Below are positions 22,270-57,544 of a stretch of DNA of 64,000 nucleotides, one piece after another; the stretch's first letter is position 1, and each line of letters begins with the position of its first letter. Both the position numbers and the translations under genes were made by a program. The notes beneath the pieces are model-generated. The model ran no database searches. It saw only the letters and a list, made by a program, of their open reading frames with translations, and was not told the origin of the DNA. This DNA comes from Dehalococcoidia bacterium (GTDB lineage Bacteria; Chloroflexota; Dehalococcoidia; Lucifugimonadales; CATOSD01), in contig CBDBBO010000001.1 of the NCBI GenBank assembly GCA_965203135.1, positions 1,878,760 through 1,942,759 of the forward strand. Reading direction: 5' to 3'.

Positions 22270-23244
22270 CTAGTTCCGGCGCCAGCCGGAGCCGAAGAGG
22301 TAGCCGTCGTAGCCCGCTACCCACACCCGCAGCGACTCGGACTCCACCCAGGCGCCCGCCTCGGTGGCATGGAAAGTCTCCGCGCCGAACAGCTCCTGGA
22401 CGTCCCTCCCGATCATCGAGATGTCGGAGTGCCCCACGATCTTCCCGTCCGGCCCGCCTATGAAGGCGAACCACCTGCCGTCCACCGTCTCTGCGGCGTT
22501 GTAGTAGGCAATTGCCTCCTCAAGGCCCGCCAGGGCGCTGCCGGGACTGGCGAAGTAGGACATGGTACCGGCCAGCCCCAGTTCCCGGTACTTGTCGACC
22601 GCCACGGACACCAGCATCCTGGTGAACTCGTCGGCGTCGATGTACCAGCCCGAGGCGAACAGCAGCCCGTCGTGCTTCACCACCCATACGTTCTTCAACT
22701 CGAAGTCGCCGGTGCCTATGCCCCCGCTCGCCGGGTTGCGGTACACGTAGGACACCCACTTGCCCTCCTCCGTGGCAGAGAGCATCTCCGGGCCGAACTC
22801 GTAGCCATTGGCGTCGGTGCCCACCCAACCCTTCACGTCCAGGCCCAGGCGTTCGGGATCGGGGTGCCCTACCACGAGGTCATTCTGGTCGATGATGAAG
22901 ACGTACCATTGGCCGTCCACGCTCCGGGGGCTGTTGTAGTGGGCGAGGGCGGCTTCCAGGCCTTGGGCCTCGTACCGGGCGACGGCGTTGTCTACGACGT
23001 GCCGGGTGTACTCGGCGGGGACCGCCTTGGACGGGACGGCGACGGCCGCTTCCCCGTTGATGGGTATGTTTCCTGGAGAGGACTCGGCCCGGGGCTGTGC
23101 GGCGGCCGTCTCCGTCGTGGCCATCTTCTCCACCTCGGCGCGGGTCTGCTCCTGCTTGCCGCCGCCCCCGCAGGCGGCGAGCAGCGCGGAAGCGGCGAGC
23201 AGGAGCGCCGCCAGTGGAATCGCGTAGCGTACCTTGCTGATCAT
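22270..23244 (-). CDS. Lipoprotein with tandem Cache-like (sCache_2-type) extracytoplasmic domains, paralog 1
   Basis: Start ATG 23244 follows AGGAG. Lipobox LLAAC. WYVFIIDQNDLVVGHPDP...GKWVSYVYRNP...GWY matches the single-Cache pattern. About 85 percent identical by eye to ORF 56564..57544. Confidence 0.75.
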   Translation of the reverse strand: MISKVRYAIPLAALLLAASALLAACGGGGKQEQTRAEVEKMATTETAAAQPRAESSPGNIPINGEAAVAVPSKAVPAEYTRHVVDNAVARYEAQGLEAALAHYNSPRSVDGQWYVFIIDQNDLVVGHPDPERLGLDVKGWVGTDANGYEFGPEMLSATEEGKWVSYVYRNPASGGIGTGDFELKNVWVVKHDGLLFASGWYIDADEFTRMLVSVAVDKYRELGLAGTMSYFASPGSALAGLEEAIAYYNAAETVDGRWFAFIGGPDGKIVGHSDISMIGRDVQELFGAETFHATEAGAWVESESLRVWVAGYDGYLFGSGWRRN

Positions 23245-23269
23245 GTCATTGCACTCCTGAGTCTTTCCT

Positions 23270-26200
23270 CTACAGCCCGCCGCTTCGCGTCCCCGGGATG
23301 ACGATTCCGTGGTTGTACGTCTTCTCGCCATCTACTGGGTTCAAGGGGTCGCAGCCGGGCGTGGTGCAGGCGTAGATGTTAATGCTCTCGTCGCCTTCGT
23401 CTTCGCCGTCGGCGGTGATGGCTATGGTTATTATGCCGCTGGTCTCACCCTCGCCGATGGTGATGAAGGACGGCATGGTATAGTCGTCGCTGGTAGCTGT
23501 TTGACCGCCGGCGGCCAGGGTTACGGTGGTGCCGTTCGCAGGCGCCGGGGCGGGCAGCGTCAACATCAACACCGCTTCTCCGCCTTCGTATGGGGTCATG
23601 CAGACCCTCAGGCCCGCCTCCCTGACTCCAATGTAGCGCCGGCAGCTTTCGGGGAGTCCGCCATCGTCAGAGCCCTGGACCTGAGCAGACGGACTGGTGT
23701 CGTTTGCCCGTGTCACCGTGATCGTGTAGGTCTTGGTCGTGCCGTTCTGAGTGGTCACAACTACGTCGATGGCCTCGGCAACGCCCGGGGTCAACGCGAT
23801 GGCGGAGCTTGGCGAGCCGGAGGCCACCGCGTCTCCTCCCACCGTCACCGTGGTGCTGGGGTCGTTTGCCGTGGGGGTCACGGTCACGCTGTCGACGGGG
23901 TTGTCCACGCTGGCCGTGTAGCCGGCGGTGTCCGCGGCGAAGTCCGGCGTGAGCGGCACGTCGTTCGTTCCGTCGGAGACGGTCAGTGCGCTCAGCGTGG
24001 CGTCGGATGACACGGTCGATACCACCGGCAGGGCTAGTGCCTCGCTGAAGGCGCGAGTGACGCTTACCGTGTAGGTCTTGGTGGTCCCGTCCTGGGCAGT
24101 CACTACGATGTCGATGACCTCGGCGACTTCCGGGGTCAGGGAGATGGCGGAGCTTGGCGAGCCGGAGGTCACCGCGTCTCCTCCCACCGTCACCGTGGCG
24201 TTGGGGTCGTTGACCGTGGGGGTCACGGTCACGCTGCCGACGGAGTTGTCGACGCTGGCCGTGTAGCCGGTGGTGTTCGAATCGAAAGTAGGTGTGAGGG
24301 GAACGTCGTTCGTTCCGTCGGAGACGGTGAGCGCGCTCAGGGTGGCGTCCGAGGACATTTCCCGCGTCACCGTGACCGTGTAGGTCATGGCGGTCCCGTC
24401 CTGGGCGGTCACCACGATGTCGATGACCTCGGCAACGCCCGCGGTCAGGGAGATGGCGGAGCTTGGCGAGCCGGAGGTCACCGTGTCTCCTTCCACCGTC
24501 ACCGTGGCGTTGGAGTCGTTGACCGTGGGGGTCACGGTCACGCTGTCGACGGAGTTGTCCACGTTGGCCGTGTAGCCGGCGGTGTCCGCGGCGAAGGCCG
24601 GTGTGAGCGGTACGTCGTTCGTTCCGTCGGAGACGGTCAGAGCGCTCAGGGTGGCGTCGGACGACATCACCGGCAAGGCGATGGCCCGTGTCACCGTGAC
24701 CGTGTAGGTCTTGGTCGTGCCGTCCTGGGCGGTCACCACGATGTCGATGACCTCGGCAACGCCCGCGGTCAGGGAGATGGCGGAGCTTGGCGAGCCGGAG
24801 GCCACCGCGGCTCCTCCCACCGTCACCGTGGCGTTGGAGTCGTTGGCTGTGGCCGTCACCGTGACGCTGCCGACTGAGTTGTCCACGCTGGCCGTGTAGC
24901 CGGCGGTGTCCGTGTCGAAGTTCGGCGTGAGCGGCACGTCGTTCGTTCCGTCGGAGACGGTCAGAGCGCTCAGGGTGGCGTCGGGGCTGCCGCCGCTCAA
25001 TCCCGGAGGGGCCTCGCCTACCACCTGGACCTGGGGAAGCTGGGCCTGCAGGCTCAGCGGCACCCTCTGCCCTTCTGTCCAGAAATTATCCCCTTTGGAG
25101 GGATCATCGTGCAAAAGGAACCCGGAATAGATCCACTGCATGTTCCTATACGTATCGGGGTCGGGTACGAACCATTGGACACGGACGGTATCGTCGAGGG
25201 AGACCAATTCGCTGCCGACTTGCATCCTCCCTTTTCGCAGGTTGGAATCCTCCGGCGTGAGGGCGGACAGACCTACCGTGGTGTAGCGCGGGGTTTCATC
25301 GGGGAGAACGGATCTGTTGAATTGTGTCCATCCGTAGGTATCAAGCCCAAAGGCGAATTCATCCTCGGTGAGGGCCACCGAGCAATCGTCTATCGAGCTG
25401 TTAAGGACGTCGATGACGCAGCCGAAATCCCCTGTCCCATCCCCGTAATCATTGTCCACCGTCAGGATGGCGGACCAGATGACGTCTTCGTGAGGGGTGG
25501 CGCTGGCCGTGGCGGACCACTGGCCGTCGCCCGCGCTGTTGGATGCCCGGACGCGCACGTCGTATTCGACGCCGTTGGTCAGGCCGGTGATCTCGGTGTC
25601 GATCCCCGTCCCGCCGTAGCCGGCGTCCAGCCAGCCGTTGCGAGGGTCGTCGAAGACGCCGGCCTGGTCGGGCGCGGAGGTGGTCTTGTACTGCACCTCG
25701 TATGCGGTGACATCCGCCCCGCCGTCGTCCTCGGGCGGGTTCCACCCGGCGACGAGTTTGGTGTTGCCGAGGGCGAGTACGAGGCCGACGGGAGCGCCGG
25801 GCACTGGGTTCCCCATGTCCCCAGTGGTCCCCGTGGGATTCGTGTTGGTCTTGTCGTCGGTGTCTCCGGAGTTCCCTATTCGCAGGCTCAGTGGAAACCG
25901 CTGCCCCTCGGCCCAACCGAATCCTCCATTGGCAGACTCATCGAGCAAACTGAACCCAAGGCCGTCCGGGTGCCAATGGACACTATCAGGATCGCCAAGG
26001 TTGAACACGGCACCTGTGTTGCCGACTTGGAGATACGCTTTCCGCAGACCGGAATCGGCCGGTACGCTCCTCGAGGAGTAGTCCGATGTAGTGGAGTACA
26101 ATCTCGTGGAGAAGTATGGGTTCAGAATCAGCTGGCTTCCCTTCGCCCTCTCTTCAGACACTCCGTCCTTGAAGTAATGCCATCTCCAGGTCTTGTCCTC

Positions 26201-26764
26201 AAACTGAAACTCATTCTCGGTGAGCGCGGTTGAGCACCTGTAGTCGTCATTGATGCCACAGCCGAAGTAATTGCTCCCACTATCAAAGGACGCCGTCAGG
26301 ATGGCGGCCCAGATGATGTCTTCGAGAGGGGTGGCGCTGGCCGTGGCGGACCACTGGCCGTCGCCCGCGCTGTTGGAGGCCCGGAGGCGCACGTCGTAGG
26401 CGACGTTGTTGGTCAGGCCGCTGATCTCTGCGTCGGTCCCCGTCACGCTGTCGCTGGCCGTCACCCAGCCGGATGCGGGGTCGCTGAGGTCGGCGGGCCG
26501 GTCGGCGGCGATGCTGTACTTGTACTGCACCGTGTATGAGGTAATATCCGCGTCGCCGGCCGGCGGGTTCCAGCCCGCGACGAGCATGGCGTTGCCCGGG
26601 GCGACGGCAAGGCCGACGGGGGCCCCGGGCGTGTCGCCGGACCCCTGTGCCGCCGCCGGAGGGTGCGCCGGCAGAAAGAGGGCCGCCACCGCGATCAGGA
26701 CGCCGAGGACGGCGGCGGTGAGCACGAGTCGGCGGCCGGTCTGTTGAGTTTCCGTTATGGTCAT
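23270..26764 (-). CDS. 1164-aa N-anchored surface protein: 2 x (FN3 + unknown Cys-pair domain), 4 x cadherin-like beta-sandwich, Calx-beta-like C-terminus
   Basis: N-terminal RR plus hydrophobic anchor. FN3-like segments (WNPP...YTVQYK...DVRLRASNSAGDGQWS). Four repeats of about 100 aa (DATLSALTVSDGTNDVPLTP...TYTVTVTR). Ends in RSGGL. Confidence 0.8.
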   Translation of the reverse strand: MTITETQQTGRRLVLTAAVLGVLIAVAALFLPAHPPAAAQGSGDTPGAPVGLAVAPGNAMLVAGWNPPAGDADITSYTVQYKYSIAADRPADLSDPASGWVTASDSVTGTDAEISGLTNNVAYDVRLRASNSAGDGQWSATASATPLEDIIWAAILTASFDSGSNYFGCGINDDYRCSTALTENEFQFEDKTWRWHYFKDGVSEERAKGSQLILNPYFSTRLYSTTSDYSSRSVPADSGLRKAYLQVGNTGAVFNLGDPDSVHWHPDGLGFSLLDESANGGFGWAEGQRFPLSLRIGNSGDTDDKTNTNPTGTTGDMGNPVPGAPVGLVLALGNTKLVAGWNPPEDDGGADVTAYEVQYKTTSAPDQAGVFDDPRNGWLDAGYGGTGIDTEITGLTNGVEYDVRVRASNSAGDGQWSATASATPHEDVIWSAILTVDNDYGDGTGDFGCVIDVLNSSIDDCSVALTEDEFAFGLDTYGWTQFNRSVLPDETPRYTTVGLSALTPEDSNLRKGRMQVGSELVSLDDTVRVQWFVPDPDTYRNMQWIYSGFLLHDDPSKGDNFWTEGQRVPLSLQAQLPQVQVVGEAPPGLSGGSPDATLSALTVSDGTNDVPLTPNFDTDTAGYTASVDNSVGSVTVTATANDSNATVTVGGAAVASGSPSSAISLTAGVAEVIDIVVTAQDGTTKTYTVTVTRAIALPVMSSDATLSALTVSDGTNDVPLTPAFAADTAGYTANVDNSVDSVTVTPTVNDSNATVTVEGDTVTSGSPSSAISLTAGVAEVIDIVVTAQDGTAMTYTVTVTREMSSDATLSALTVSDGTNDVPLTPTFDSNTTGYTASVDNSVGSVTVTPTVNDPNATVTVGGDAVTSGSPSSAISLTPEVAEVIDIVVTAQDGTTKTYTVSVTRAFSEALALPVVSTVSSDATLSALTVSDGTNDVPLTPDFAADTAGYTASVDNPVDSVTVTPTANDPSTTVTVGGDAVASGSPSSAIALTPGVAEAIDVVVTTQNGTTKTYTITVTRANDTSPSAQVQGSDDGGLPESCRRYIGVREAGLRVCMTPYEGGEAVLMLTLPAPAPANGTTVTLAAGGQTATSDDYTMPSFITIGEGETSGIITIAITADGEDEGDESINIYACTTPGCDPLNPVDGEKTYNHGIVIPGTRSGGL
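23708..24988 (-). repeat. Four tandem coding repeats of about 300-330 bp (cadherin-like domains) with high DNA identity
   Basis: Near-identical antisense ORFs at 24078, 24387 and 24711 in the ORF track; the protein repeats cover aa 593-1019. Confidence 0.85.
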
Positions 26765-26788
26765 GTCATTCCACCCCTTATTCTTTGC

Positions 26789-27007
26789 TTACAGTCCGCC
26801 CAATTGGGAGAAAGAGGACAGCTTGCCCCTGGATGCGTTCACAGGGACGGGCCTGAAGCGATCGTCCTGGGGCTCGTCCGCCGCTGCCGGTACCACCGGC
26901 AGAAAGACGGCCGTCAGCGCTACCAGGGCGCCGATGAGCGCGGCCGGGATCAAAAGCCTGTCCCGCGCTTGGTGCGGGGGTGGGGGGTCTGTACAGTAGG
27001 GTTCCAT
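26789..27007 (-). CDS. 72-aa leader-like ORF (poly-Pro, signal-anchor, GGL end) heading the locus-1 surface operon
   Basis: GGAGG plus 11 nt plus ATG, the same start context as genes at 51929 and 55341. MEPYCTDPPPPHQARDRLLIPAALIGALVAL... ends in LGGL, 24 nt before the large gene. Confidence 0.35.
   Translation of the reverse strand: MEPYCTDPPPPHQARDRLLIPAALIGALVALTAVFLPVVPAAADEPQDDRFRPVPVNASRGKLSSFSQLGGL
26976..26987 (-). repeat. Interrupted homopolymer (CCCCCCACCCCC on the coding strand) encoding the PPPP of the locus-1 leader
   Basis: GGGGGTGGGGGG on the plus strand. It is positionally equivalent to the uninterrupted C14/C15 tracts of locus 2. Confidence 0.6.
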
Positions 27008-27117
27008 GTGGTCTGGTTCCTCCTTTGGTATCCCCGTTCTTTCGACGGGTCAGGCTTTGGCGGAATCCGTAGCGGCTGCCGCCAACGGATTCACACGGCG
27101 GAGAAGTGTACAGGCAT

Positions 27118-27137
27118 TTGTGTGTTTTTCTTGTGTG
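27118..27137 (+). promoter_or_regulatory. Direct repeat TTGTGTG-N6-TTGTGTG in the locus-1 divergent promoter region (candidate wHTH regulator site)
   Basis: Two exact 7-mers with a 13-bp period and a third TTGTGTA at 27163-27169. A matching TTGTGGA-N5-TTGTGGA lies in the equivalent orientation at 51711-51729. Confidence 0.4.
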
Positions 27138-27162
27138 CTTCCCCGCTGAATATGTGAGAGTA

Positions 27163-27191
27163 TTGTGTAGTTTTTGCGTTTATGGTATAAC
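27163..27191 (+). promoter_or_regulatory. Possible promoter TTGTGT-N17-TATAAC giving a near-leaderless transcript for the locus-1 kinase
   Basis: The -10 element ends 9 nt before ATG 27200, and no Shine-Dalgarno sequence precedes the ATG. Confidence 0.3.
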
Positions 27192-27199
27192 CAGCCCCC

Positions 27200-30100
27200 A
27201 TGGACACACTCATACACGAATCGTCGGAGGTCGCCCTGGACCCGGGCGTCAGCCTCGAGGAGGCCGCCGGGCTGAAGCGGGAGATAGAGATGCTGCGGGC
27301 CCGCCTTTCCGAGTTGAGCGGGGCTACTCTGCGCATCATCGAGGATCCGGACCTCGACACTGTCCTGCAGGGAGTCATAGACGGGGCCCGCTCGCTGACC
27401 GGCGCACGGTACGGCGCGCTCCTCATCCTCGACCACCTTGGGGGCATCGAGGCTCTCATCACCTCCGGCATAACCTACGAAGAGGCTGCGGCTATCACAG
27501 TCGAGCCCAAGGGTTTGGGATTGCTGGGATATCTCAACGAGCTTCGGGGGCCGCTGAGACTGCGGGACATCGCCGCTCATCACAGGTCGATAGGTTTTCC
27601 CAAAGGCCACCCCCCGATGAAGAGCTTTCTCGGGACCCCGATCATCCATCGCGGCGAGAGGCTCGGCAACATCTACCTCACCGAGAAGGAGCACGGCGAG
27701 GAGTTCACGCCGGAAGACGAAGAGAGCCTCACCGTGTTCGCCTCCCATGCGGCGACGGCCATCTTCAACGCCCGAGCCTACCAGTTCGAGCGCCAGGCCA
27801 AGGCCGACCTGGAGGCGCTGAACGAGCGATTTCTCATGCTTTGCGAGGCCGTTCGCGTCCTCAGCGAAAGCCTCGACGTCGATTCCGTTCTAGACCGGAT
27901 TGTGACCAGCGCGAGGTCGCTCACCGGAGCGCGCAACGGCTTGATTACGACGCTCGACGAGTCCGGGCGGCTGGTGGACTTCTACACCTCCGGGTTCACC
28001 CCCGAAGATCGCGAGGTCCTGCTGGACGTGCCCCGAGGGCCGGAGATACTGGACCACTTTCACAACCTGCCGCGCCCGTTGCGCGTGCCGGACTTGACGG
28101 CCCATATCCGCAACCTCGGCTTTTCCGATGCGCTTCCTCCTCTGGCGACCGCACTGTCCGTGCCGGTCTATTTCCGCGACGTCCGCGTGGGCAACCTTTA
28201 CCTCGCCAACAAAGAGGGTGGAGCCGAGTTCACCGAAGGCGACGAAGAGTTGATGAGCGTGCTCGCCTCCCAGGCGGCGGTCGCCATCGCCAACGCTCGA
28301 GCCTACCAGTCCGAGCGCCAGGCCAAGGCCGACATGGAAGCGCTGAACGAGCGATTTCTCATGCTTTGCGAGGCCGTTCGCGTCCTCAGCGAAAGTCTCG
28401 ACGTCGATTCCGTTCTAGACCGGATTGTGACCAGCGCGAGGTCGCTCACCGGAGCGCGCAACGGCTTGATTACGACGCTCGACGAGTCCGGGCAGTTGGT
28501 GAACTTCTACCCTTCCGGGTTCACCCCCGAAGATCGCGAGGTCCTGCTGGGCGTACCCCGAGGGCCGGAGATACTGGACCATTTCCACAACTTGCCGCGC
28601 CCGTTGCGCGTGCCGGACTTGACGGCCCATATCCGCAACCTCGGCTTTTCCGATGCGCTTCCCCCTCTGGCGACCGCGCTGTCCGTGCCGGTCTATTTCC
28701 ACGACGTCCGCGTGGGCAACCTTTACCTGGCCAACAAGGAAGGCGGAGCCGAGTTCACCGAAGGCGACGAAGAGTTGATGAGCGTGCTCGCCTCCCAGGC
28801 GGCGGTCGCTATCGCCAACGCCCGAGCCTACCAGTCCGAGCGGCAGGCCAAGGCCGACATGGAGGCACTGGTGGACACCTCGCCCGTGGGAGTGATGGTG
28901 TTCGACGCGAAAACGCTGGACCTGGTGTCGTTCAACCAGGAGACCAGACGGATAGTGCGTGGGCTGAGCGGGCTGGGCCGCAGCCGGGAGGCGCTGTTCA
29001 GCGTGATGAGCTTCCGGCGTCCGGACGGGCGCAAGATTCCGCACGAGGAACTGCCGACGGCCCGAGCGATACGCGACGGCAACTCGGTGCGCGCCGAGGA
29101 GATAATCATCGATCTCCCGGGCGACCAGACGATCAGAACTATCATCAACGCCACGCCCGTCTTTTCGGAAGAGGGAGAAGTAGTCTCCGTCATCACCACC
29201 ATGCAGGACATGACGCCGCTGGAGAGGACGGAAAGGCTGCGCGCCGAGTTCGTCGGCATGGTGAGCCACGAGCTTAGAACGCCGTTGGCCGCCATCAAAG
29301 GCTCCGCCGCCACTGTGCTGGGCGCTTCGTCCGCCCTCGATAGCGAGGAGATGCGCCACTTCTTCCGGGTTATAGACGATCAGGCCGACCGTATGCGCGG
29401 CCTCATCTCGGACCTTCTCGACACGGCGCAGATAGAGGCGGGCACGCTGTCGGTCGATTCCGAGCCCGCTGATATGGCGGACCTGGTCGAGGAGGCGAGG
29501 CGCGCCTTCCTGCGCGGCGGAGCCACGAACGTCATCGAGGCCGACCTCCCGCCGGGCCTGCCCCGTGTCGAGGTGGACCGGCAGCGCATGGGGCAGGTGC
29601 TGAACAACCTCTTCGCCTACGCCTCCAGGCACTCGCCCTATATGTCCACCATCAGGATGAGCGCGTCGGTGGACGACGTGTACGTTTCCATATCAGTGGC
29701 GGACGAGAGCAGGGACGTGTCCGGCGAGCGTCTGCGCCAACTTTTCAGAAGGTTCTCTCCCGTGGACGGCGAAGACCGATACGGGCAGTCGGCGGGAGAA
29801 GGCCTAGGTCTGATCGTATGCAGGGGGATAGTGGAAGCGCACGGGGGCCGCATATGGGCCGAAAGCATCGGCCCCGGCCTGGGCACTCGGTTCACCTTCA
29901 CCGTTCCGTCCGTCGAGGAGGCCGCCCGCGGCGCGGCGGCAAACTCCGGCTGGCTCCTCGCCGACGCTGAGCGAACGGAGGGAGCGCGGACGCGCGTTCT
30001 GGTGTTGGACGATGAGCCGCACATACTGCTGCACCTTCGGAATACCCTGCGGGAAGCGGGCTACGCCTCTATGGTCACCGACAATCCGAAAGAGGCGCAC

Positions 30101-30745
30101 CGTCTCATAGAGACGGATAAGCCCCACCTGATCCTGCTCAACCCGACGCTGGCCGACCCTGTATCGGAGTACTGGACGGGCGAAATCGAGCTGATGGACG
30201 ACATCCGCGAGTTCACCGACGCGCCGGTCATCTTCATGTCGGGACAGGCCAGCGACGATGACATCGCACGCGCCTTCGACGTGGGGGCCGACGACTACAT
30301 CCTCAAGCCCTTCTCGCCGACCGAGCTGGTGGCCAGAATCAGGGCGGCCCTGCGCCGGCAATCGGCACAGGAGCCGACACAGACGCGCGAGCCTTATCTG
30401 CTGGGAGACCTGATGATAGACTACCAGGAACGCCGCGTGACGCTCGCGGGCAGGCCGGTGCAACTGACTTCCACCGAATACAAGCTGCTCTCGGACCTTT
30501 CCGCCAACGCCGGACGAGTTTTGAGCCACGACCAACTGCTGAGACGGGTCTGGGGCCCGGGCTACGAGGGCGACACACAGCCCGTACGCACCTTCGTCAA
30601 GAACCTCCGCCGCAAGCTGGGAGACGACCCGAGGAACCCCGCCTACATCTTCACCGAGCCCCGCGTCGGCTACCGCATGGCAAAGTCGGGGGGGGGGGGG
30701 GCACGCCGGACGCCGGACGCGAGGCGCATGACTCATGGCGATTAG
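27200..30745 (+). CDS. Soluble hybrid sensor GAF-GAF-GAF-PAS-HisKA-HATPase-REC-OmpR-type wHTH (locus 1)
   Basis: No TM segments. H-box MVSHELRTPL, G-boxes (GEGLGLIV), a receiver (VLVLDDEP...KPF) and a winged-helix tail (LTSTEYKLL...RVGYRMA). The receiver has Asn at the phospho-acceptor position (LILLNPT). Confidence 0.9.
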   Translation: MDTLIHESSEVALDPGVSLEEAAGLKREIEMLRARLSELSGATLRIIEDPDLDTVLQGVIDGARSLTGARYGALLILDHLGGIEALITSGITYEEAAAITVEPKGLGLLGYLNELRGPLRLRDIAAHHRSIGFPKGHPPMKSFLGTPIIHRGERLGNIYLTEKEHGEEFTPEDEESLTVFASHAATAIFNARAYQFERQAKADLEALNERFLMLCEAVRVLSESLDVDSVLDRIVTSARSLTGARNGLITTLDESGRLVDFYTSGFTPEDREVLLDVPRGPEILDHFHNLPRPLRVPDLTAHIRNLGFSDALPPLATALSVPVYFRDVRVGNLYLANKEGGAEFTEGDEELMSVLASQAAVAIANARAYQSERQAKADMEALNERFLMLCEAVRVLSESLDVDSVLDRIVTSARSLTGARNGLITTLDESGQLVNFYPSGFTPEDREVLLGVPRGPEILDHFHNLPRPLRVPDLTAHIRNLGFSDALPPLATALSVPVYFHDVRVGNLYLANKEGGAEFTEGDEELMSVLASQAAVAIANARAYQSERQAKADMEALVDTSPVGVMVFDAKTLDLVSFNQETRRIVRGLSGLGRSREALFSVMSFRRPDGRKIPHEELPTARAIRDGNSVRAEEIIIDLPGDQTIRTIINATPVFSEEGEVVSVITTMQDMTPLERTERLRAEFVGMVSHELRTPLAAIKGSAATVLGASSALDSEEMRHFFRVIDDQADRMRGLISDLLDTAQIEAGTLSVDSEPADMADLVEEARRAFLRGGATNVIEADLPPGLPRVEVDRQRMGQVLNNLFAYASRHSPYMSTIRMSASVDDVYVSISVADESRDVSGERLRQLFRRFSPVDGEDRYGQSAGEGLGLIVCRGIVEAHGGRIWAESIGPGLGTRFTFTVPSVEEAARGAAANSGWLLADAERTEGARTRVLVLDDEPHILLHLRNTLREAGYASMVTDNPKEAHRLIETDKPHLILLNPTLADPVSEYWTGEIELMDDIREFTDAPVIFMSGQASDDDIARAFDVGADDYILKPFSPTELVARIRAALRRQSAQEPTQTREPYLLGDLMIDYQERRVTLAGRPVQLTSTEYKLLSDLSANAGRVLSHDQLLRRVWGPGYEGDTQPVRTFVKNLRRKLGDDPRNPAYIFTEPRVGYRMAKSGGGGARRTPDARRMTHGD
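27788..28837 (+). repeat. Perfectly in-frame tandem duplication, 2 x 525 bp, of one GAF domain
   Basis: GAGCGCCAGGCCAAGGCCGAC... recurs at 27788, 28313 and (boundary) 28838. The copies differ at only a few codons. Confidence 0.9.
30688..30701 (+). repeat. G14 homopolymer tract at the 3' end of the kinase gene, 34 nt upstream of the DegV start
   Basis: CAAAGTC G14 CACGCC. It encodes the GGGG of the tail, after the wHTH has ended (GYRMA). Confidence 0.9.
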
Positions 30746-32322: not shown

Positions 32323-32365
32323 AGTTTACCATAGTTTATCCGTATAGCATAAACTATGGTAAACT
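32323..32365. promoter_or_regulatory. Perfect 17-bp inverted repeat (AGTTTACCATAGTTTAT N9 ATAAACTATGGTAAACT) between divergent genes
   Basis: AT-rich palindrome in a GC-rich genome. Each arm contains an ATGGTAAAC that opens the longest ORF on its strand. Confidence 0.55.
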
Positions 32366-32415
32366 CTGTAGAACTCCGAACAGTCGAACTCAAGAGAACT
32401 GTAAGACTTGCATCA

Positions 32416-45924: not shown

Positions 45925-45952
45925 ACGCATAGGCCCGCTTGGGGTGCCAAGC

Positions 45953-46026
45953 TGGCTGGGGATCGAGGATTCGAACCTCGGCCTACGGATCCAGAGTCCG
46001 TCGTTCTGCCACTAGACTAATCCCCA
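45953..46026 (-). tRNA. tRNA-Gln (anticodon CTG), CCA encoded
   Basis: Hand-folded cloverleaf: acceptor TGGGGAT/ATCCCCA with G73, anticodon arm ACGGA-CTCTGGA-TCCGT, T arm CGAGG-TTCGAAT-CCTCG. Confidence 0.85.
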
Positions 46027-51626: not shown

Positions 51627-51710
51627 CGAATCTTACCTCCTGGGTTGGGGGTGACGGGGCCGTTTCCGGCCCCGGACGCACTGGGGTCTTCACAGAATTA
51701 TACTCCACTG

Positions 51711-51729
51711 TCCACAACACTTTCCACAA
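51711..51729 (-). promoter_or_regulatory. Direct repeat TTGTGGA-N5-TTGTGGA next to a TATAAT box in the locus-2 divergent promoter region
   Basis: On the minus strand: TTGTGGAAAGTGTTGTGGA, followed 8 nt later by TATAAT (51702-51697). Orientation relative to the kinase gene is the same as for the locus-1 repeat. Confidence 0.4.
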
Positions 51730-51928
51730 AAGAAGGGGTCAAAACCACGTGGAGGCGATGGGGCGTCGGGTATAGTTTCTGCTGGGTCTGTGCGTCCCCA
51801 GCCCGAGGGAACGGCGCTGGCCGCCTGATCCCAGCGGGGAAGCTGGAAGCAGCCGCTCCGCTGGCGGGGTTGGGGGGATCATACCGACCGATGAAGCAGA
51901 CCGCTGCTTGATAGGAGACACGATAGCC

Positions 51929-54160
51929 ATGTTCGACTCAGGAAGCAACAGCAGTAGGGTGCGCCGCCTGCTGGGGGCGGCTATGCCTTCTACCCCCCCC
52001 CCCCCCCGATTCTCAGCCGCCGACAACCACGGGAGGCCCACGATGATGCGGGCCTCCTTCCTCCGCCTATCCCCGCTCCTGCTGTTGGCGGCCGCTCTCG
52101 TCGGGCTGGCGGTCTTTTTCGCGCCCGGCGCGCAGCCCGGCGCGCAGCCCGTCTCCGCGCAGGACAACTGTGACGCACCCGGCGGCGCCCGGAACGTAAA
52201 GGTGACCGCCGGCAACGCCAAGTTGACGCTGACCTGGGAGGAGCCGACGTCCTGGGGAGATTGGGATAGCGATGGCTATCGCTACTATATTGTCCATTGG
52301 CGGCGAGCCGACGCCGACCCTGAGCTTTCATTCAATCTGATCGATAACGGCCGGAGCAGGAGGCCGCCGACAACATCGTATGTGTTTACAGGCACCTATG
52401 AAGAGGAGCTCTCAAATCCTCGCAGGTTTCAAAATCACACAGTTGTGAATGGAACCAAGTACGATCTGGATGTTCAGACAGCTTACACCAATCGAGAATG
52501 CGGACACACTCGCGGCCAACAGGTGCAAGCGTCCGGCACCCCGGTGGAAACCCTGGAAATCCCATCCGCCGACGCCACCCTCAGCGGCCTGGAGCTGGCC
52601 AACGCCGCGGACGACAGCGACGCGCCGGTGGATCGGATAGGGTACATCAGCGAAGATCGCCTCTACCTCGCCCCGATGCTGCGGGAAGTCGATTTCATAA
52701 CTGTCAAGCCCACCGCCACGGCGGGAGACCTCGCGACCATCACGGTGCGGCGAGAGATGGGCGGGACGCCCGAGACCGTGGCCAGCGGCGCAATCAGCTC
52801 CAGAATTCACATCGCTCCCAAAGCGGACTCGAGCGTTCCTCACAACATCTTCGTGACGGTGACCGCGGAGAACGGCAGCGACACCCTGACCTACCATGTA
52901 AAAGTCTACCAATACCCTCCCGTCAGCTTCCAGGGCGTCACCGTGGAGGACAAGACCTACACCGAGGGTAGAGAAATCTCATTCCTGAACCTCAGCGAGA
53001 CTGAGAGGGACGCTCTCAAGCTGCCCCAGGCGGCCGGCGTATTTTATGCCGTAGACGTCACCTACGAGGCCACGGGCCTGCCCGCAGGGTTGACCATGGG
53101 CCACGACAGGCACATCCGCGGCACGCCCACGGCCAAGACCGACACCCCGGCCACTGTCACCTACAAGGTCACTGACGCTATTGGCGGCTCGGCTTCCCTC
53201 ACGTTCCAGGTGACGGTCAACCCGCCGGTGGCCTTCGACGCGGAAGACCTCAACACCTACTACGGGAGGGTCATCACCTACACCGCGGGCCAGGCGGCGC
53301 CCCTCACCGTCACACTGCCGCAGGCCACGGGAGGCACGGGGACGCTGACCTACGAACTGGTATTCCGCACCGCCGAGGCCGTTCCGCCGTCTGTCCCCGG
53401 CGCGGGCGTAAACCTGGATCCCTCCACCCGGGTCCTGACCATCGACGGGAACTCGAATGTCAACCGGATCGCTCTCCGGGACACGGGATACGCCATCAGC
53501 TACCGGGCGAGGGACGAAAATGGGGCGACGGCGTCGGCCGCCAGCAGCATCTCCGTGATCGGACCTCCGACCCTGTCGAACATAGAGGACCAGTCCTACA
53601 CCGCGGGCAGTGCCGTCTCTCTCACACTGGGGGCGGCCAGCGGGCCGTGGTGGAAGATGGTGGCCCCGTTGAGCTATGAGCTCGCGGGGCAGGTCGATGG
53701 CCTCGCCTTTTCCGGAGGGAGCAACCCCACCCTCTCCGGCACGCCCACGGTTGCGGGCGTCACGGCGATGACCTACACGGCAACGGACGGCAACGGCGTC
53801 AGCGCCAGCCGGAACTTCACCGTCACCGTGGTCAACGGTCCCAATGTCCCGACCGCCGCGCCCGCGTCCCTGGCAGCAGTCCAGGTAAGCCGGGACGCTG
53901 TGGCGACCTGGGACGCCGTGACGGGAGCGACGGCCTACGTGGTCCAGGTCATAGCCGACGGCGGCAGCTACCCGGACAGGCCGGTCAACTCCACGCCCGC
54001 CGGCGTCGCTCTCAGCTTCCTCGTAGGCAGCGTCAGCGGCGTCAGCATCGAAGGCCTCAGCGACGGCGACTACAAGGTGCGCGTCGCCGCCAGGAACGAT
54101 GACGGCGTGGGCCCGTGGTCGGCGGAGGCCAGCTTCACCGTGAAGGTGGGAGGGCTCTAG
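51929..54160 (+). CDS. N-anchored surface protein (FN3, cadherin-like, several He_PIG-like Ig domains, C-terminal FN3) with a poly-C tract in its leader
   Basis: AGGAG plus 11 nt plus ATGTTCGAC start context, shared with 55341. An alternative internal start at ATG 52043 follows GGGAGG. The signal-anchor is LLLLAAALVGLAVFFAPGAQ. Ends in VGGL. Confidence 0.75.
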   Translation: MFDSGSNSSRVRRLLGAAMPSTPPPPRFSAADNHGRPTMMRASFLRLSPLLLLAAALVGLAVFFAPGAQPGAQPVSAQDNCDAPGGARNVKVTAGNAKLTLTWEEPTSWGDWDSDGYRYYIVHWRRADADPELSFNLIDNGRSRRPPTTSYVFTGTYEEELSNPRRFQNHTVVNGTKYDLDVQTAYTNRECGHTRGQQVQASGTPVETLEIPSADATLSGLELANAADDSDAPVDRIGYISEDRLYLAPMLREVDFITVKPTATAGDLATITVRREMGGTPETVASGAISSRIHIAPKADSSVPHNIFVTVTAENGSDTLTYHVKVYQYPPVSFQGVTVEDKTYTEGREISFLNLSETERDALKLPQAAGVFYAVDVTYEATGLPAGLTMGHDRHIRGTPTAKTDTPATVTYKVTDAIGGSASLTFQVTVNPPVAFDAEDLNTYYGRVITYTAGQAAPLTVTLPQATGGTGTLTYELVFRTAEAVPPSVPGAGVNLDPSTRVLTIDGNSNVNRIALRDTGYAISYRARDENGATASAASSISVIGPPTLSNIEDQSYTAGSAVSLTLGAASGPWWKMVAPLSYELAGQVDGLAFSGGSNPTLSGTPTVAGVTAMTYTATDGNGVSASRNFTVTVVNGPNVPTAAPASLAAVQVSRDAVATWDAVTGATAYVVQVIADGGSYPDRPVNSTPAGVALSFLVGSVSGVSIEGLSDGDYKVRVAARNDDGVGPWSAEASFTVKVGGL
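51993..52007 (+). repeat. C15 homopolymer tract in the 5' leader of gene 51929..54160
   Basis: TCTA C15 GATTC. It encodes TPPPP and is in frame with the downstream signal-anchor at this length. Confidence 0.9.
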
Positions 54161-54207: not shown

Positions 54208-55299
54208 GTGATGATGCTGCGTAGACCTGGATTGCAGGCCGGACACGTTTGGCGCGTCGCGGTCGTCGCCGTGCTTGCCGCTGCGGCGCTCCTGCTCCTC
54301 CACGACGCGCCGCACGCCGCCTGGGCGCAGGCCCCACCGTCCGACGACGCCACCCTCAGCGCGCTGGAGATCGCGAACGCCACGACCGGCAGCGACGCGT
54401 CGGCGGGCACGGTGTGGCCCTTTGGCGCTCGCGCCTACGTCGCCGTGATGCTCCAGGAGGTCACCAGCGTCACCGTCCGGCCCACCGCCACGGCGGGCGA
54501 CCTCGCGGCCATCACGGTGCAGCTGGAGAGCGGCGGGACGCCCCAGACCGTGGCCAGCGGCGCGGACAGCTCCGCAATCACCATCACCCCCAAGGCCGAC
54601 TCCTCCGTGCCGCACAACATCCTGGTGAAGGTCACCGCGGAAAACGGCAGCGACACCCTGACCTACACGCTGAAGGTGTACCAGTACCCACCCGTCAGCT
54701 TTGACGCCGCCGTCCCTGCTCTGACATTCACGCAGGGCGCCAGGGTGGAGCACCGGCTCCCGTCGGGCAGCGACGACTACGAGGTGACCTACACCGCCAC
54801 CGGCCTGCCCGCGGGACTGTCCCTGTCGAGCGTCCATCGGGCCATCGTCGGCACGCCCACTGCCGTCACCGCGAGCCCCGCCACCGTCACCTATACCGCC
54901 ACCGGCGAGATAGGCAGCACGGCCTCCCTCACCTTCGACGTGTCGGTCGCCCCGCCGGTGACCTTCGACGATGCGGCCAGGAGGTTCTGCAGCTCCAGGA
55001 TCGTCGCGTTCACCGGCGGAGAGTGGCTGGACGCCGACGACGATGGAACGATCACCTATCCGGCGGCGTCGGGCGGCGCCGGGACACTCACCTACAGCCT
55101 GATTGAATCCGACTCGCAGCAGCCGCTGGCCAGCGTGGCTTCCGGGATCACCTTCGACACCGCGACCCGGAAGCTTGGCGGAACCCCGGCGGCAGCCGCG
55201 CAGAAGACATGGTCCGTGACCTACGCTGCCGAGGATCAGAACGGCAGCCGGGCCGCGTGCACCACCGCAGTACATGCCGGCGGCTTCGGCGGCCTGTAG
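54208..55299 (+). CDS. Secreted or anchored protein with cadherin-like and He_PIG-like domains
   Basis: Start is probably ATG 54211 or 54214, after GGAGG at 54202-54206. The cadherin-like segment is about 80 percent identical by eye to that of the upstream gene. Ends in FGGL. Confidence 0.75.
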   Translation: MMMLRRPGLQAGHVWRVAVVAVLAAAALLLLHDAPHAAWAQAPPSDDATLSALEIANATTGSDASAGTVWPFGARAYVAVMLQEVTSVTVRPTATAGDLAAITVQLESGGTPQTVASGADSSAITITPKADSSVPHNILVKVTAENGSDTLTYTLKVYQYPPVSFDAAVPALTFTQGARVEHRLPSGSDDYEVTYTATGLPAGLSLSSVHRAIVGTPTAVTASPATVTYTATGEIGSTASLTFDVSVAPPVTFDDAARRFCSSRIVAFTGGEWLDADDDGTITYPAASGGAGTLTYSLIESDSQQPLASVASGITFDTATRKLGGTPAAAAQKTWSVTYAAEDQNGSRAACTTAVHAGGFGGL

Positions 55300-55404
55300 G
55301 CGCGGGGACGAAACACAATTGAAAGGAGGACTCAGCAACCATGTTCGACAACAGAGAGAAAACAACCCGCCGCGGAGCGCCGCCGGGGGCGGCCATGCCC
55401 GTTA

Positions 55405-55418
55405 CCCCCCCCCCCCCC
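55405..55418 (+). repeat. C14 homopolymer tract separating a conserved leader ORF from the Calx-beta protein body
   Basis: GTTA C14 GAACG. The upstream frame (ATG 55341) and the downstream frame (55453..56559) differ by +1. Confidence 0.9.
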
Positions 55419-55452
55419 GAACGCAAGTTCTATCCGCTCCCCGCTCCTCCTG

Positions 55453-56559
55453 TTGGCGGCCGCGCTGATGGCAATGGCGGTCCTCTTTGCGCCCGGCGCA
55501 CAGCCCGCCCAGGCCCAGGCCGCCAAGCCCACCGTGTCCCTCTCCGCCTCGCCCAACCCGGTGCGCGAGGGAACCAGTGTGACGGTGACGGCGAGGATTT
55601 CCCGCACCCGGAACTCCGAAACGGTGGTCCCGGTGACGCTGCACGCCGGTTCTGCCGAAGAGGACGACCACGGCGCACTGACGAGCATCACCATCCCCGC
55701 CAACTCTGCCACCGGCACGGGCGTCATCACCACCACGATGGACAGCGACACGGATGACGAGGTCTTCCACGTGGGGCTCGACAACGTGGGCAAGGACGCG
55801 GATTACGCTTGGGGTGCCGTGTCGTGGTTGAGTATCACCATCCTGGACAGCGATCTCCGCCAGGTGTCCCTCTCCGTCTCCGCCAACCCCGCGGACGAGG
55901 GTACTGTCCCGCAGGTGATTGTGACCCTGACGTCACTGAGGTGGGGCACCCCAGCGTCCCTGGGGAGCGACGTGACGATCCCGCTGACGTTCACCGCCGG
56001 CTCGGCCGAGAGCGACGACTATTCCGATTTTCCGAGCGTCACCATCCCCGCCGGCTCGACGACCAACGGGACCAGCGGCTTCATCGTCACCACCGACGAC
56101 ACCGACGCCGACGACGAGACCTTCACCATTGCGCTGGACACGGCCAACGCGGCCTGGCCGTCGGGGGTGAAGCCGGGCGCGGTCTCCTCGGTGCTGGTCA
56201 GGATCACGGACAACGACGCGGCTTCGCCGGGGACGCTGAGCGTGGACACCGGTTTCGGAAACCCGGAGTGCGGGGCCACTATCAGCGTCACCTCCGAGAC
56301 GCCGGAGTGGGCGCTCGTGCTCAGCCCGGCCCCGTCCGCTGAGGAAAACACGCAATACCGGGTCCTGGCCGATGCGAACGGCCCCTGGCTGGGGGCAGTT
56401 CCGGTCCTTACCACCGGCAGCTCGGTCTTCACCTCCTTCAAGACCTATGCCGCACATCTGGAGGCCTCCCCCGGCTTCAGGGGGTTCGAATTCAGACTCG
56501 CCGACCACGCGGACGTCACGGCGAGCTGCACCTGGACGTTCCAGACCGGAGGAGTATAG
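55453..56559 (+). CDS. Surface protein with three Calx-beta-like repeats; its body is out of frame with its probable start (ATG 55341) at the C14 tract
   Basis: The track ORF starts at an internal TTG inside the signal-anchor (..SPLLLLAAALMAMAVLFAPGAQ). No in-frame ATG/GTG/TTG lies upstream. The leader MFDNREKTTRRGAPPGAAMPVTPPPP from 55341 is homologous to the leader of gene 51929. Ends in TGGV. Confidence 0.7.
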   Translation: MAAALMAMAVLFAPGAQPAQAQAAKPTVSLSASPNPVREGTSVTVTARISRTRNSETVVPVTLHAGSAEEDDHGALTSITIPANSATGTGVITTTMDSDTDDEVFHVGLDNVGKDADYAWGAVSWLSITILDSDLRQVSLSVSANPADEGTVPQVIVTLTSLRWGTPASLGSDVTIPLTFTAGSAESDDYSDFPSVTIPAGSTTNGTSGFIVTTDDTDADDETFTIALDTANAAWPSGVKPGAVSSVLVRITDNDAASPGTLSVDTGFGNPECGATISVTSETPEWALVLSPAPSAEENTQYRVLADANGPWLGAVPVLTTGSSVFTSFKTYAAHLEASPGFRGFEFRLADHADVTASCTWTFQTGGV

Positions 56560-56563
56560 GTAA

Positions 56564-57544
56564 ATGAGAGGCACGATGCGACGCATTGCACTGGCTGCGG
56601 GACTGCTGCTAATCCTCTCCGTCGCTCTCGCGGCCTGCGGGGGCGGCGAGGAGGCGCTGACCAGCTCTGAGGTGGAGCAGATCGTCAACGACGCCATCGA
56701 GGAGATGCCCAAGAATGAGCCCGCCCTGACGCGGGCCGACGTTGAGGAGATAGTGCGGGCGGCCATCGCCGCCATCCCGTCCAAGTCCGCCCCCGCCGAG
56801 TACACGCAATACTTCGTGGGCAACGCCATCTCACGCTACGAATCCCAGGGCCGGGACGCCACCCTCGCCCACTACAACAGCCCGCAGAGCGTGGACGGCC
56901 AGTGGTACGTCTTCATCATCGACCAGAACGATCTCGTCATCGGACACCCCGACCCCGGACGACTGGGCCTGGACCTGAAGGGCTGGGTGGGCACCGACGC
57001 CAACGGCTACGAGTTCGGGCCTGAGATGCTCTCGGCCACGGAGGAGGGCAAGTGGGTGTCCTACGTCTACCGCAACCCGGAGAGCGGTGGCATAGGCACC
57101 GGCGACTTCGAGCTCAAGAACGCCTGGGTGGTGAAGCGCGACGGGCTGCTGTTCGGCTCGGGCTGGTACATCGACGCGGACGAGTTCACCAGGATGCTGG
57201 TGTCCGTGGCGGTGGACAAGTACCGCGAACTGGGACTGGCGGGAACGATGGCCTACTTCGCCAGCCCGGGAAGCGTCCTGGCGGGCCTTGAGGAGGCCAT
57301 CGCCTACTACAACGACACCGAGACCATCGACGGCCACTGGTTCGCCTTCATAGGAGGGCCGGACGGGAAGATCGTGGGCCACTCCGACATCTCGAAGATC
57401 GGCGGGGACGTCCAGCACCTGTTCGGCGGGGAGACGTTCGAGGCCACCGAGTCTGGCGTCTGGGTCGAGTCCGAGTCGCTGCGGGTGTACGTGGCGGGCT
57501 ACGACGGCCACGTCTTCGGCTCCGGCTGGAGCCGGGACGAGTAG
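56564..57544 (+). CDS. Lipoprotein with tandem Cache-like domains, paralog 2
   Basis: Lipobox LAAC. About 85 percent identical by eye to 22270..23244 over roughly 265 aa. Confidence 0.8.
   Translation: MRGTMRRIALAAGLLLILSVALAACGGGEEALTSSEVEQIVNDAIEEMPKNEPALTRADVEEIVRAAIAAIPSKSAPAEYTQYFVGNAISRYESQGRDATLAHYNSPQSVDGQWYVFIIDQNDLVIGHPDPGRLGLDLKGWVGTDANGYEFGPEMLSATEEGKWVSYVYRNPESGGIGTGDFELKNAWVVKRDGLLFGSGWYIDADEFTRMLVSVAVDKYRELGLAGTMAYFASPGSVLAGLEEAIAYYNDTETIDGHWFAFIGGPDGKIVGHSDISKIGGDVQHLFGGETFEATESGVWVESESLRVYVAGYDGHVFGSGWSRDE

Follow-up and report, generated by a model that had tools for sequence, protein, structure and literature searches.

The 64-kb stretch of DNA analysed here (contig CBDBBO010000001.1, positions 1,878,760-1,942,759; referred to as the window, with coordinates given as window positions) is a chromosome segment of 65% G+C from a Dehalococcoidia bacterium. 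It contains two related loci, locus 2 being the mirror image of locus 1. Each combines a gene for a soluble regulator fusion with oppositely read genes for exported repeat proteins, here called cargo, and a gene for a lipoprotein with two Cache-fold modules. The loci are copies of a lineage-specific, multi-copy surface-protein module that occurs in Dehalococcoidia from sponges and corals and in a few Acidimicrobiia from sponges. An earlier note on this DNA had described the loci, and all of its open reading frames (ORFs) were found at the same positions. Their features are as follows (aa, amino acids; wHTH, winged helix-turn-helix).

22270-23244, minus strand: locus 1 Cache lipoprotein, 324 aa from an internal ATG, lipobox LLAAC, two Cache-fold modules
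23270-26764, minus strand: locus 1 cargo, 1164 aa, with signal peptide, two FN3 domains, four cadherin-like beta-sandwich repeats (Pfam) and a Calx-like C-terminal part, ending in SGGL
26789-27007, minus strand: 72-aa ORF of locus 1 with leader, interrupted C run and signal-peptide-like segment, ending in LGGL
27008-27199: divergent control region of locus 1
27200-30745, plus strand: soluble regulator fusion of locus 1, 1181 aa, with three GAF domains, PAS, HisKA (SHELRTPL), HATPase_c, REC and OmpR-type wHTH (Pfam)
30688-30701, plus strand: G14 run in the 3' tail of the locus 1 regulator gene, encoding KSGGGGA
49191-51626, minus strand: soluble regulator fusion of locus 2, 811 aa, with GAF, PAS, HisKA (SHELRSPL), HATPase_c, REC and wHTH
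51627-51928: divergent control region of locus 2 with a long conserved 5' leader
51912-52048, plus strand: leader cassette of L2_a
52043-54160, plus strand: cargo L2_a, 705 aa, with signal peptide, cadherin-like domain, He_PIG repeats and C-terminal FN3, ending in KVGGL
54211-55299, plus strand: cargo L2_b, 362 aa, with signal peptide, cadherin-like domain and He_PIG, ending in FGGL
55323-55418, plus strand: leader cassette of L2_c
55300-56559, plus strand: cargo frame of L2_c (stop to stop), two Calx-beta-like modules and a C-terminal domain, ending in QTGGV
56564-57544, plus strand: locus 2 Cache lipoprotein, 326 aa, with lipobox LAAC, helical LTRAEVEEIVR linker repeats and two Cache-fold modules

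Most of the domain assignments of the earlier note were confirmed by Pfam. The locus 1 adhesin matched two fn3 and four Cadherin-like (PF12733) domains, and its gene contains tandem repeats of 324 nucleotides (nt) at 24066-24983; L2_a matched He_PIG, fn3 and, weakly, Cadherin-like, and L2_b matched He_PIG and Cadherin-like. Less firm are the Cache assignments, which lie near the gathering score, and Calx-beta (PF03160), which was matched in L2_c only and below threshold (17.4 bits with a cut-off of 27, E=0.0047); the Calx-like label of L2_c and of the C-terminal part of the locus 1 adhesin is a sequence motif judged by eye. The start proposed for the locus 1 lipoprotein at 23331 is probably too far upstream, and the internal ATG is preferred.

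Relatives of the Cache lipoprotein were collected in a scan of one genome per species, which gave 336, and the best 80 loci, designated by L and a number, were analysed within 10-kb flanks of the Cache homologue. The family comprises more than 1400 database relatives at 60-85% identity, several of them on single long contigs. Nearly all of the best 80 loci stem from metagenome-assembled genomes (MAGs) of Dehalococcoidia, while three belong to sponge-associated Actinobacteriota, namely Ca. Poriferisocius, the Sva0996 group and an Acidimicrobiaceae bin from Aplysina. Sequencing runs containing the sequence derive from sponge, coral and marine metagenomes. The copy number per genome, a check that the earlier note had suggested, reaches at least four in several MAGs, and up to four loci were found on one chromosome.

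The order of kinase, cargo operon and Cache gene is syntenic in at least 21-28 of the 80 loci, and the triad of the earlier note is in this sense a recurrent arrangement. Its kinase-regulator fusion is, however, an optional component: a full-length fusion occurs within 10 kb in 29 of the 80 loci and is adjacent and divergent in 21. In 19 other, more distant loci the same position is taken by a NarL/GerE-type regulator, 12 times together with a HisKA_3 kinase. About 60% of the loci have a two-component regulator that is read oppositely, the soluble fusion being the type present at both window loci. When all ORFs of the 80 loci were clustered, the Cache lipoprotein emerged as the sole non-cargo family present in every locus; neither a sortase-like or peptidase family nor any transporter genes recur among the neighbours in these loci. 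On this comparative evidence the invariant pair consists of the Cache lipoprotein and of cargo ending in Gly-Gly-hydrophobic, with the kinase-regulator fusion as an optional partner. The Cache gene concludes the operon in both window loci, as described earlier, but this is not general, since in relatives it is often not the last gene and more cargo genes follow. Cargo diversifies between loci while the Cache protein stays 60-85% identical, in keeping with the notion of a diversifying module; the label "surface coat" is an interpretation.

All five operon ORFs of the window, the 72-aa ORF included, end in GGL or GGV as the earlier note had observed, whereas none of about 40 other window ORFs does so. 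Throughout the 80 loci, GG[LVIM] ends are found in 155 of 523 ORFs on the Cache strand versus 1 of 320 on the opposite strand, and GGL is by far the commonest C-terminal tripeptide (116 cases; the second most frequent, the end of the Cache protein itself, has 22). The immediate same-strand neighbours of the Cache gene end in GG[LVIM] in nearly all loci that have an upstream ORF, and tailed genes are found both upstream and downstream of it. The terminal domains that precede the tail are unrelated to one another (FN3, He_PIG, LRR and unknown folds); position -4 of the tail is usually hydrophobic and position -6 often Val. A signal peptide with an AxA-type (AQA-type) site is present in 132 of 148 tailed ORFs. 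Because these sites look cleavable, the cargo is probably secreted and not N-anchored, as had been assumed earlier. Each module encodes between one and about nine Sec-exported repeat proteins, with fn3, cadherin, cadherin-like, He_PIG and LRR domains across loci, and the signal peptide and GG[LVIM] are their sole common features. NCBIfam holds no curated family for the cargo.

Several trivial origins of the tail were considered and rejected. Both of its glycine positions use all four Gly codons, with GGA modestly enriched, which argues for selection at the protein level and against the tail as a by-product of an overlapping ribosome-binding site; array-last genes and genes with long downstream gaps are tailed as well. 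The locus 1 cargo ends with GGC GGG CTG TAG. In L2_c both functions coincide, the tail codons GGA GGA serving also as the Shine-Dalgarno sequence (SD) of the locus 2 Cache gene. TAG is the stop codon of 77% of the GG[LVIM]-ending ORFs versus 44% of the other ORFs of the same loci, and of four of the five in the window. Recoding or read-through of TAG was dismissed because it is a common stop elsewhere and the next window gene begins 4 nt on. A CaaX-like box does not fit either, Cys occupying position -4 in only 6 of 156 tails. The tail was seen in 16 of 150 diverse L2_b relatives, all 16 of them small signal-peptide proteins; giant He_PIG repeat proteins among the relatives are without it. Two short unrelated contigs carry tandem arrays in which each complete ORF ends in GGL, the contigs found by starting from tailed proteins being 2-4 kb only.

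In the lipoprotein, the lipobox cysteine (LLAAC/LAAC, Ala-Cys) is invariant in 32 homologues, and lipidation is predicted from sequence. The Pfam family sCache_3_2 matched with 28.6 bits in locus 1 and 27.5 bits in locus 2 versus a cut-off of 28.4, and matches of both proteins to sCache_2 and dCache_2 remained below the cut-off. An AlphaFold2 model of the locus 2 lipoprotein, built on the 32 homologues, has a pLDDT of 74. Foldseek related it to the ligand-binding domains of PctA, CtaA, Mlp24, TlpB and Adeh_3718 with a probability of about 1; since the TM-scores are low (0.2-0.55), the match holds per domain. All of these PDB domains are amino-acid/carboxylate-binding Cache sensor domains. In locus 2 the two Cache-fold domains sit on a helical stalk formed by the linker repeats, and the protein ends after the second module, with no transmembrane-linked cytoplasmic output domain (kinase, methyl-accepting chemotaxis protein or cyclase). 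Judged by the model, it has the Cache (PDC) fold and yet is no Cache receptor. No sequence relative was found in the PDB, and NCBIfam has no family for this lipoprotein. A coral metatranscriptome contains RNA contigs related to the loci, which is weak evidence of expression. In this dataset (run X12), Cache-related contigs covering 56675-57500 are about 1000-1700 deep, far above cargo-related ones; this depth may reflect high expression or the pooling of conserved paralogues.

The third component is a leader cassette, which precedes many of the cargo genes. Three homopolymers of at least 12 bases occur in the window versus 0.05 expected (C15 at 51993-52007, C14 at 55405-55418 and the G14 run), and all of them lie inside the loci, for which the earlier note had listed long G/C homopolymers. 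The cassette consists of AAGGAGG, 8-12 nt, ATG, a leader ORF of the form M-x(10-17)-RRLLRAAMP(S/V)T and a C run. What comes next is either another ribosome-binding site with an ATG ahead of the signal peptide, or directly the signal-peptide codons without a start. Its flanks are conserved across loci, while the C runs range from 7 to 34. The start context reported earlier, GGAGG followed by 11 nt and ATG, is seen with 10-11 nt at three leaders and is conserved in relatives. The "poly-Pro leader" before the signal peptide exists as a stretch, but it is the translation of the poly-C run, and the true start mostly comes after it. The distance from the leader ATG to the C run is always 1 mod 3 (55, 58, 61, 64, 67 or 73 nt), which indicates that the leader is kept as a translated reading frame.

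In the L2_a cassette, an SD at 51912-51918 is followed by the leader ATG at 51929, the conserved RRLLGAAMPST, a proximal ATG at 51983, the C15 run, a second SD (GGGAGG, 52031-52036) and the main ATG at 52043. As assembled, leader and main ORF share one frame; the gene-caller product starts with MMRASF and has 705 aa, matching the start at 52043. The L2_c cassette has its SD at 55323-55330, the leader ATG at 55341, a proximal ATG at 55395 and the C14 run, with no SD or start codon between the run and the signal-peptide core. The cargo is read in the +1 frame relative to the leader ORF, with a TTG at 55453 within the hydrophobic core as its first in-frame start, so that L2_c as assembled is without a usable canonical start. 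L2_b has an ordinary SD and no poly-C cassette. In locus 1, the 72-aa ORF (SD 27017-27025, ATG 27007) contains an interrupted run, C6AC5, at 26976-26987 and looks like a duplicated, degenerate leader cassette; in L025, a locus orthologous to locus 1, the corresponding MKPYC leader continues straight into the adhesin.

A pattern scan of metagenomes yielded 12 more cassettes; a protein database search with the 82-aa leader plus signal peptide returned a single, uninformative match. Relative to the leader, the cargo frame is +1 in 14 of 28 cassettes, in frame in 9 and -1 in 5, a distribution that does not depart significantly from random (p=0.11). The five cassettes in which no start follows the run (L003, L015, L054, L067 and L2_c of the window) are all +1. 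In these startless cassettes the leader mostly ends with PPPP-E-P-x-F at a conserved TAG four codons after the run; this TAG is mutated in L067 (TGG) and in L2_c (TAT). Stop codons follow the C run in both non-cargo frames. Instead of being switched off, the startless +1 cassettes may undergo programmed +1 frameshifting or slippage. Contigs often end at C runs. The most direct case of length variation concerns L083 and L086 from two samples, which align over 1795 nt with 0 mismatches and differ solely in having C18 and C22, respectively. In Ca. Poriferisocius (L076, NZ_OZ241977.1, 8106-10765 and 12550-20142) a C34 run is found together with two tailed proteins and a Cache lipoprotein, and related poly-C cassettes also precede large untailed proteins ending in TITLPRT. 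The cassette therefore crosses phyla and is not restricted to tailed cargo.

At the level of RNA, RNAalifold gave no net covariation support for an element in eight orthologous leaders, and Rfam recognized only two tRNAs in the window. A GCCGCC...GGCGGC hairpin lies just before the proximal ATG (51960-51985, 55372-55397 and relatives) in both versions of the leader and is kept although the leader peptide differs (RRLLRAA and RRGAPPGAA); in L027 both arms are changed with wobble pairs kept and amino acids altered. This conservation suggests a constraint at the nucleic-acid level inside the leader ORF. Another conserved C-run context, GTAGTCCTG-C10/C16-GCTTCCGGGCAACAA, occurs just downstream of the Cache gene, at about 10960, in L044, L046 and L053.

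The anatomy and synteny of the loci, the tail, the signal peptides, the Cache fold, the lipobox, the cassette and the run-length variation between sequences can be established from sequence comparison. As a whole they are best explained by a combination of regulator control, switching or tuning by poly-C runs, and retention of the tailed cargo by the Cache lipoprotein, to which we give an even chance. A cytoplasmic GAF/PAS sensor would set the activity of the fused OmpR-type DNA-binding domain, and the wHTH would act on the intergenic region that both transcription units share, and so control the cargo operon and, probably, the regulator's own promoter. Slippage in the poly-C run would change the connection between leader and cargo, the leader being fused to the cargo, terminating just upstream of it or running out of frame. 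Individual cargo genes could thereby be switched or tuned stochastically, L2_c requiring a +1 frame shift for a usable start. The run could exert its effect through heritable slippage in the manner of contingency loci, or through slippage or frameshifting during expression. After export and cleavage of the signal peptide, the lipid-anchored Cache protein would bind the free carboxyl tail, Gly-Gly-hydrophobic, and so retain the cargo at the surface, in a receptor-tag arrangement and not by a covalent, sortase-type anchor. We infer this last step because the lipoprotein is the one invariant partner and far more conserved than any cargo, because the tail is the sole invariant part of the cargo and because Cache domains typically bind carboxylates and amino acids. 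That GG-(Leu/Val/Ile/Met) is a new surface-retention or sorting tag read by a membrane-anchored double-Cache lipoprotein and forms, together with stochastic poly-C cassettes, a horizontally shared, variable display system with which sponge and coral symbionts from two phyla present eukaryote-like adhesion proteins to their host, is a tentative proposal that we ourselves consider rather unlikely. The narrower claim, that tail and Cache protein make up a new sorting or retention system, we likewise give a real but less than even chance.

A number of observations weigh against this explanation. Docking of the tail to the Cache protein is suggested by co-occurrence and by the usual ligands of the fold, the model is of moderate confidence and reaches only low TM-scores with known Cache domains. 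Among the more distant Cache homologues, about a dozen have no tailed genes beside them, and the reverse test, from tailed gene to nearby Cache gene, covered the 10-kb flanks and the 64-kb window. As to the runs, homopolymer length is error-prone in assemblies, which applies to the run-length differences, and in most cassettes the run is no simple on/off switch because a ribosome-binding site and ATG of their own follow it. Programmed frameshifting or slippage fits better than random switching in that five of five startless cassettes are +1. As to the regulators, 32 of the 80 loci have none within 10 kb, the receiver of locus 1 has Asn in place of the acceptor Asp, an exchange conserved in the orthologues L025, L022 and L065 at 62-84% identity, and the TTGTG repeats of the control regions are partly conserved in orthologues, with one copy being simply a -35 box.

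A rival account to heritable switching holds that the poly-C runs serve programmed recoding, by RNA polymerase slippage, +1 frameshifting on CCC or EF-P-dependent stalling at poly-Pro, and we rate it as a real possibility that nevertheless falls short of an even chance. Among +1 slippery sites CCC-C is a classic, and ribosomes stall at poly-Pro. In agreement with recoding, the leader ORF is translated from a strong ribosome-binding site in a frame that is conserved, runs of 14-34 C are longer than the RNA-DNA hybrid, and the uniform +1 frame of the five startless cassettes comes with a leader that typically ends in PPPP-E-P-x-F-stop and with stop codons in both non-cargo frames. The frame distribution over all 28 cassettes does not bear this out, and run length varies freely between close relatives, as heritable slippage predicts.

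For the Cache lipoprotein, a possible though somewhat unlikely reading is that of an ordinary extracytoplasmic binding protein for a small molecule, such as a host-derived amino or organic acid, which acts as co-sensor or assists uptake; recognition of the tail would in that case fall to something encoded elsewhere, for example a protease, a transpeptidase or a wall or S-layer component, or the tail would cap the last beta-strand. Its closest folds are indeed small-molecule sensor domains, some Cache homologues are without tailed neighbours, and where the kinase is split, the lipoprotein could serve it as an accessory sensor. Kinases paired with an accessory lipoprotein are known, LpqB-MtrB being an example. 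The kinases of the window, by contrast, are soluble and could receive no signal from an extracellular lipoprotein, transporter genes do not recur in the loci, and the 80 neighbourhoods offer no candidate processing enzyme. Invariance of the tail across unrelated terminal domains points to recognition rather than to capping of a fold.

The regulator fusions agree with their earlier description as cytoplasmic GAF-PAS-HisKA-HATPase-REC-wHTH single polypeptides. Pfam identified three GAF domains, PAS, HisKA, HATPase_c, REC and Trans_reg_C in locus 1 and the same set with one GAF domain in locus 2, with E-values in the two fusions of 1e-16 to 1e-18 for HisKA (PF00512), 4e-19 and 2e-26 for HATPase_c (PF02518) and 1e-22 and 8e-17 for Trans_reg_C (PF00486); REC (PF00072) is present in both. 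The His box is kept and there is no membrane segment (maximum hydropathy in locus 1, 1.46). The locus 2 protein, which starts with GTG 8 nt downstream of AGGAGG, has all elements of a two-component system including the acceptor Asp (LLDLILPG), which is kept in all locus-2-type proteins. In locus 1, the receiver (29990-30100) has Asn at this position and an insertion, HLILLN-PTLADPVSEYWTGEIEL; Asn plus insertion is also seen in its orthologues L025, L022 and L065. The locus 1 type is for this reason a pseudo-receiver incapable of a standard intramolecular phosphorelay, and the designation as a two-component system applies without reservation to locus 2 only. The GAF domains of locus 1 are encoded by a 525-nt repeat unit (27650-28870) whose copies are 77-86% identical at the nucleotide level, copies 2 and 3 looking almost identical as protein. 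The fusion family comprises more than 120 clusters at at least 74% identity, with the same architecture throughout and several members per genome.

TTGTG direct repeats had been noticed in both divergent promoters and are present there. In locus 1, copies start at 27118, 27131 and 27163; a candidate kinase promoter is formed by TTGTGT, 17 nt and TATAAC (27186-27191), 8 nt before the ATG. L025, L022 and L019 retain the copy nearest to the kinase, and in L025 there is also partial conservation of the upstream pair. In locus 2, a sigma-70-like kinase promoter on the minus strand has its -35 TGGAAA at 51726-51721 and its -10 TATAAT at 51702-51697; the repeats appear as CACAA at 51713-51717 and 51725-51729, and the -35 overlaps one copy. 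A conserved TATAGT at 51771-51776 is likely the -10 of the operon. One copy is accordingly part of a kinase -35 and the rest are partly conserved; the spacing of further TTGTG copies, 12-13 nt, would suit an OmpR-type dimer. The G14 run lies 34 nt before the overlapping DegV start at 30735 and recurs in the orthologue L019. A change in its length would alter the tail of the regulator and the overlap with DegV. Read on the minus strand, the run resembles the cargo cassette: C14-GACTTTGCC.

It is improbable that the regulators are mere neighbours which control other genes, the shared architecture of the two loci reflecting block duplication only. Such a view could appeal to the 32 loci without a nearby regulator, to the variable regulator type, to the weak conservation of the TTGTG repeats and to the DegV gene, which always follows the locus-1-type regulator. 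It has to contend with divergent adjacency in 21 loci whose kinases are only 50-60% identical and whose cargo differs, and with the appearance of a second, unrelated regulator type at the same position elsewhere, which is what functional linkage predicts.

The two loci are supported by sequence as ancient paralogues of one module, as their inverted, shared architecture of ORFs and domains had suggested. Protein identity between them ranges from 50 to 75% (Cache lipoproteins 74.6%, kinases 50%), and L2_a and L2_b are 47% identical. On OZ242014.1, L025 is of the locus 1 type (84% identity), while L027 (82%) and L021 (73%) are of the locus 2 type; since both kinase types have separate orthologues in other genomes, the duplication must be old. 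At the DNA level the Cache genes are 87% and the kinase genes 66% identical, a divergence that rules out an assembly duplicate. That one of the loci, or the homopolymers, might nonetheless result from duplication, chimerism or sequencing error in the assembly is very improbable and is refuted for the loci themselves, exact run lengths left aside: assemblies do break at C runs and some metagenome contigs show messy run expansions, but contigs from independent runs match the locus 1 divergent junction with 0 mismatches, contigs of run X2, a separate run from the same sample, span the L2_a tract at C15, and both types of locus, as well as the cassette, are found again in dozens of assemblies from different technologies.

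Homopolymer contingency loci are known from Neisseria pilC/opa, Mycoplasma hyorhinis vlp and the Bordetella fim promoters (C-runs, BvgAS). In Gardnerella nanH3, a poly-C run of 8-14 adjoins the signal-peptide coding region (bioRxiv 10.1101/2020.09.16.300947). The module shares with such loci the long C homopolymer at the 5' end of genes that encode exported surface proteins, a run length that differs in otherwise identical sequences (here in assemblies), the occurrence of several paralogues each with its own run behind a conserved 5' region, and a two-component regulator nearby. It differs in that the run is part of a conserved leader ORF of its own, which precedes the signal peptide; in most cassettes another start follows the run, and runs reach 34 C. 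Furthermore, the hosts are not pathogens but uncultured Chloroflexota and Actinobacteriota symbionts. If the runs switch expression, the biology of contingency loci would extend from pathogens to mutualistic Chloroflexota, and hypervariable runs would give a clonal symbiont population a mixed surface.

Sponge MAGs have been described as enriched in cadherin and FN3 genes, with lateral transfer of these genes (Robbins et al. 2021; PMC8163846). Our cargo proteins resemble these sponge-symbiont proteins in domain families, habitat, phyla and sharing across phyla; in that study domains were counted, and the tail, the Cache partner, the leader cassette and linked regulators are not described there. 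Classical secretion systems are scarce in the sponge lineages (PMC8163846). Sponge symbionts are uncultured, and their eukaryote-like adhesion proteins are thought to mediate host recognition and escape from phagocytosis. The module is widespread in this ecologically important uncultured group and supplies testable handles: a cargo set that can be recognized by its last three residues, one conserved protein as candidate receptor or anchor, and dedicated regulators.

C-terminal sorting signals include LPXTG with sortase, GlyGly-CTERM with rhombosortase and PGF-CTERM with archaeosortase. A further example is PEP-CTERM with exosortase (PMC1569441). As in these systems, a short motif is found on many otherwise unrelated exported proteins of one genome and co-occurs with one dedicated partner gene. 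Unlike sortase, exosortase and rhombosortase signals, the tail has no transmembrane helix or basic cluster, the protein ending one residue after Gly-Gly, and the partner is a Cache-fold lipoprotein and not a membrane protease or transpeptidase; among the recurrent neighbours of the 80 loci there is no cognate processing enzyme. C-terminal tags with a free carboxylate that are read by a receptor are exemplified by PTS1 "SKL" and Pex5, by PDZ ligands and by the outer membrane protein (OMP) motif YxF read by DegS. The terminal x-x-hydrophobic-COOH after any domain, a form that a receptor for carboxylates would read, is similar, by analogy only, whereas the receptor fold differs, the location is extracellular and the pairing is putative. 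If the tail and the Cache protein do pair, this would be a new kind of protein-sorting signal and a new role of the Cache fold, as a receptor for protein C-termini.

Bacteroides hybrid two-component systems possess a periplasmic sensor, membrane segments and an AraC output. The fusions of the window resemble them in having kinase, receiver and DNA-binding domain in one chain beside the locus, but are soluble, with GAF/PAS sensors and an OmpR-type wHTH, and locus 1 is without the acceptor Asp. Neither in the literature searched nor in the curated family libraries are the module, its tail, the lipoprotein family or the cassette described. The parts are of known kinds (two-component regulators, adhesin-like proteins of sponge symbionts, homopolymer contingency loci), while their combination is apparently undescribed.

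Two further families occur downstream of the Cache gene in relatives (L003, 13209-13682, L021, 11155-11412, and similar) and are absent from the window: a helix-turn-helix protein of about 87-100 aa ending in LAHIFTD in 13 loci, and a 158-aa META-domain protein ending in VFERVG in five loci. The housekeeping neighbours of the loci in the window include a CoxLMS-type dehydrogenase, DegV, FtsH, MoxR/BatA, ABC solute-binding proteins and luciferase-like monooxygenases. A protein with Schlafen/AlbA_2, HATPase_c_4 and Fic-like C-terminal parts (47790-49184, minus strand) adjoins the locus 2 regulator, and a STAND/AAA_16 NTPase (32356-33591, plus strand) is encoded between the loci; both may serve in defence and have no link to the module. 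Two tRNA genes (45851-46026, minus strand) also lie between the loci.

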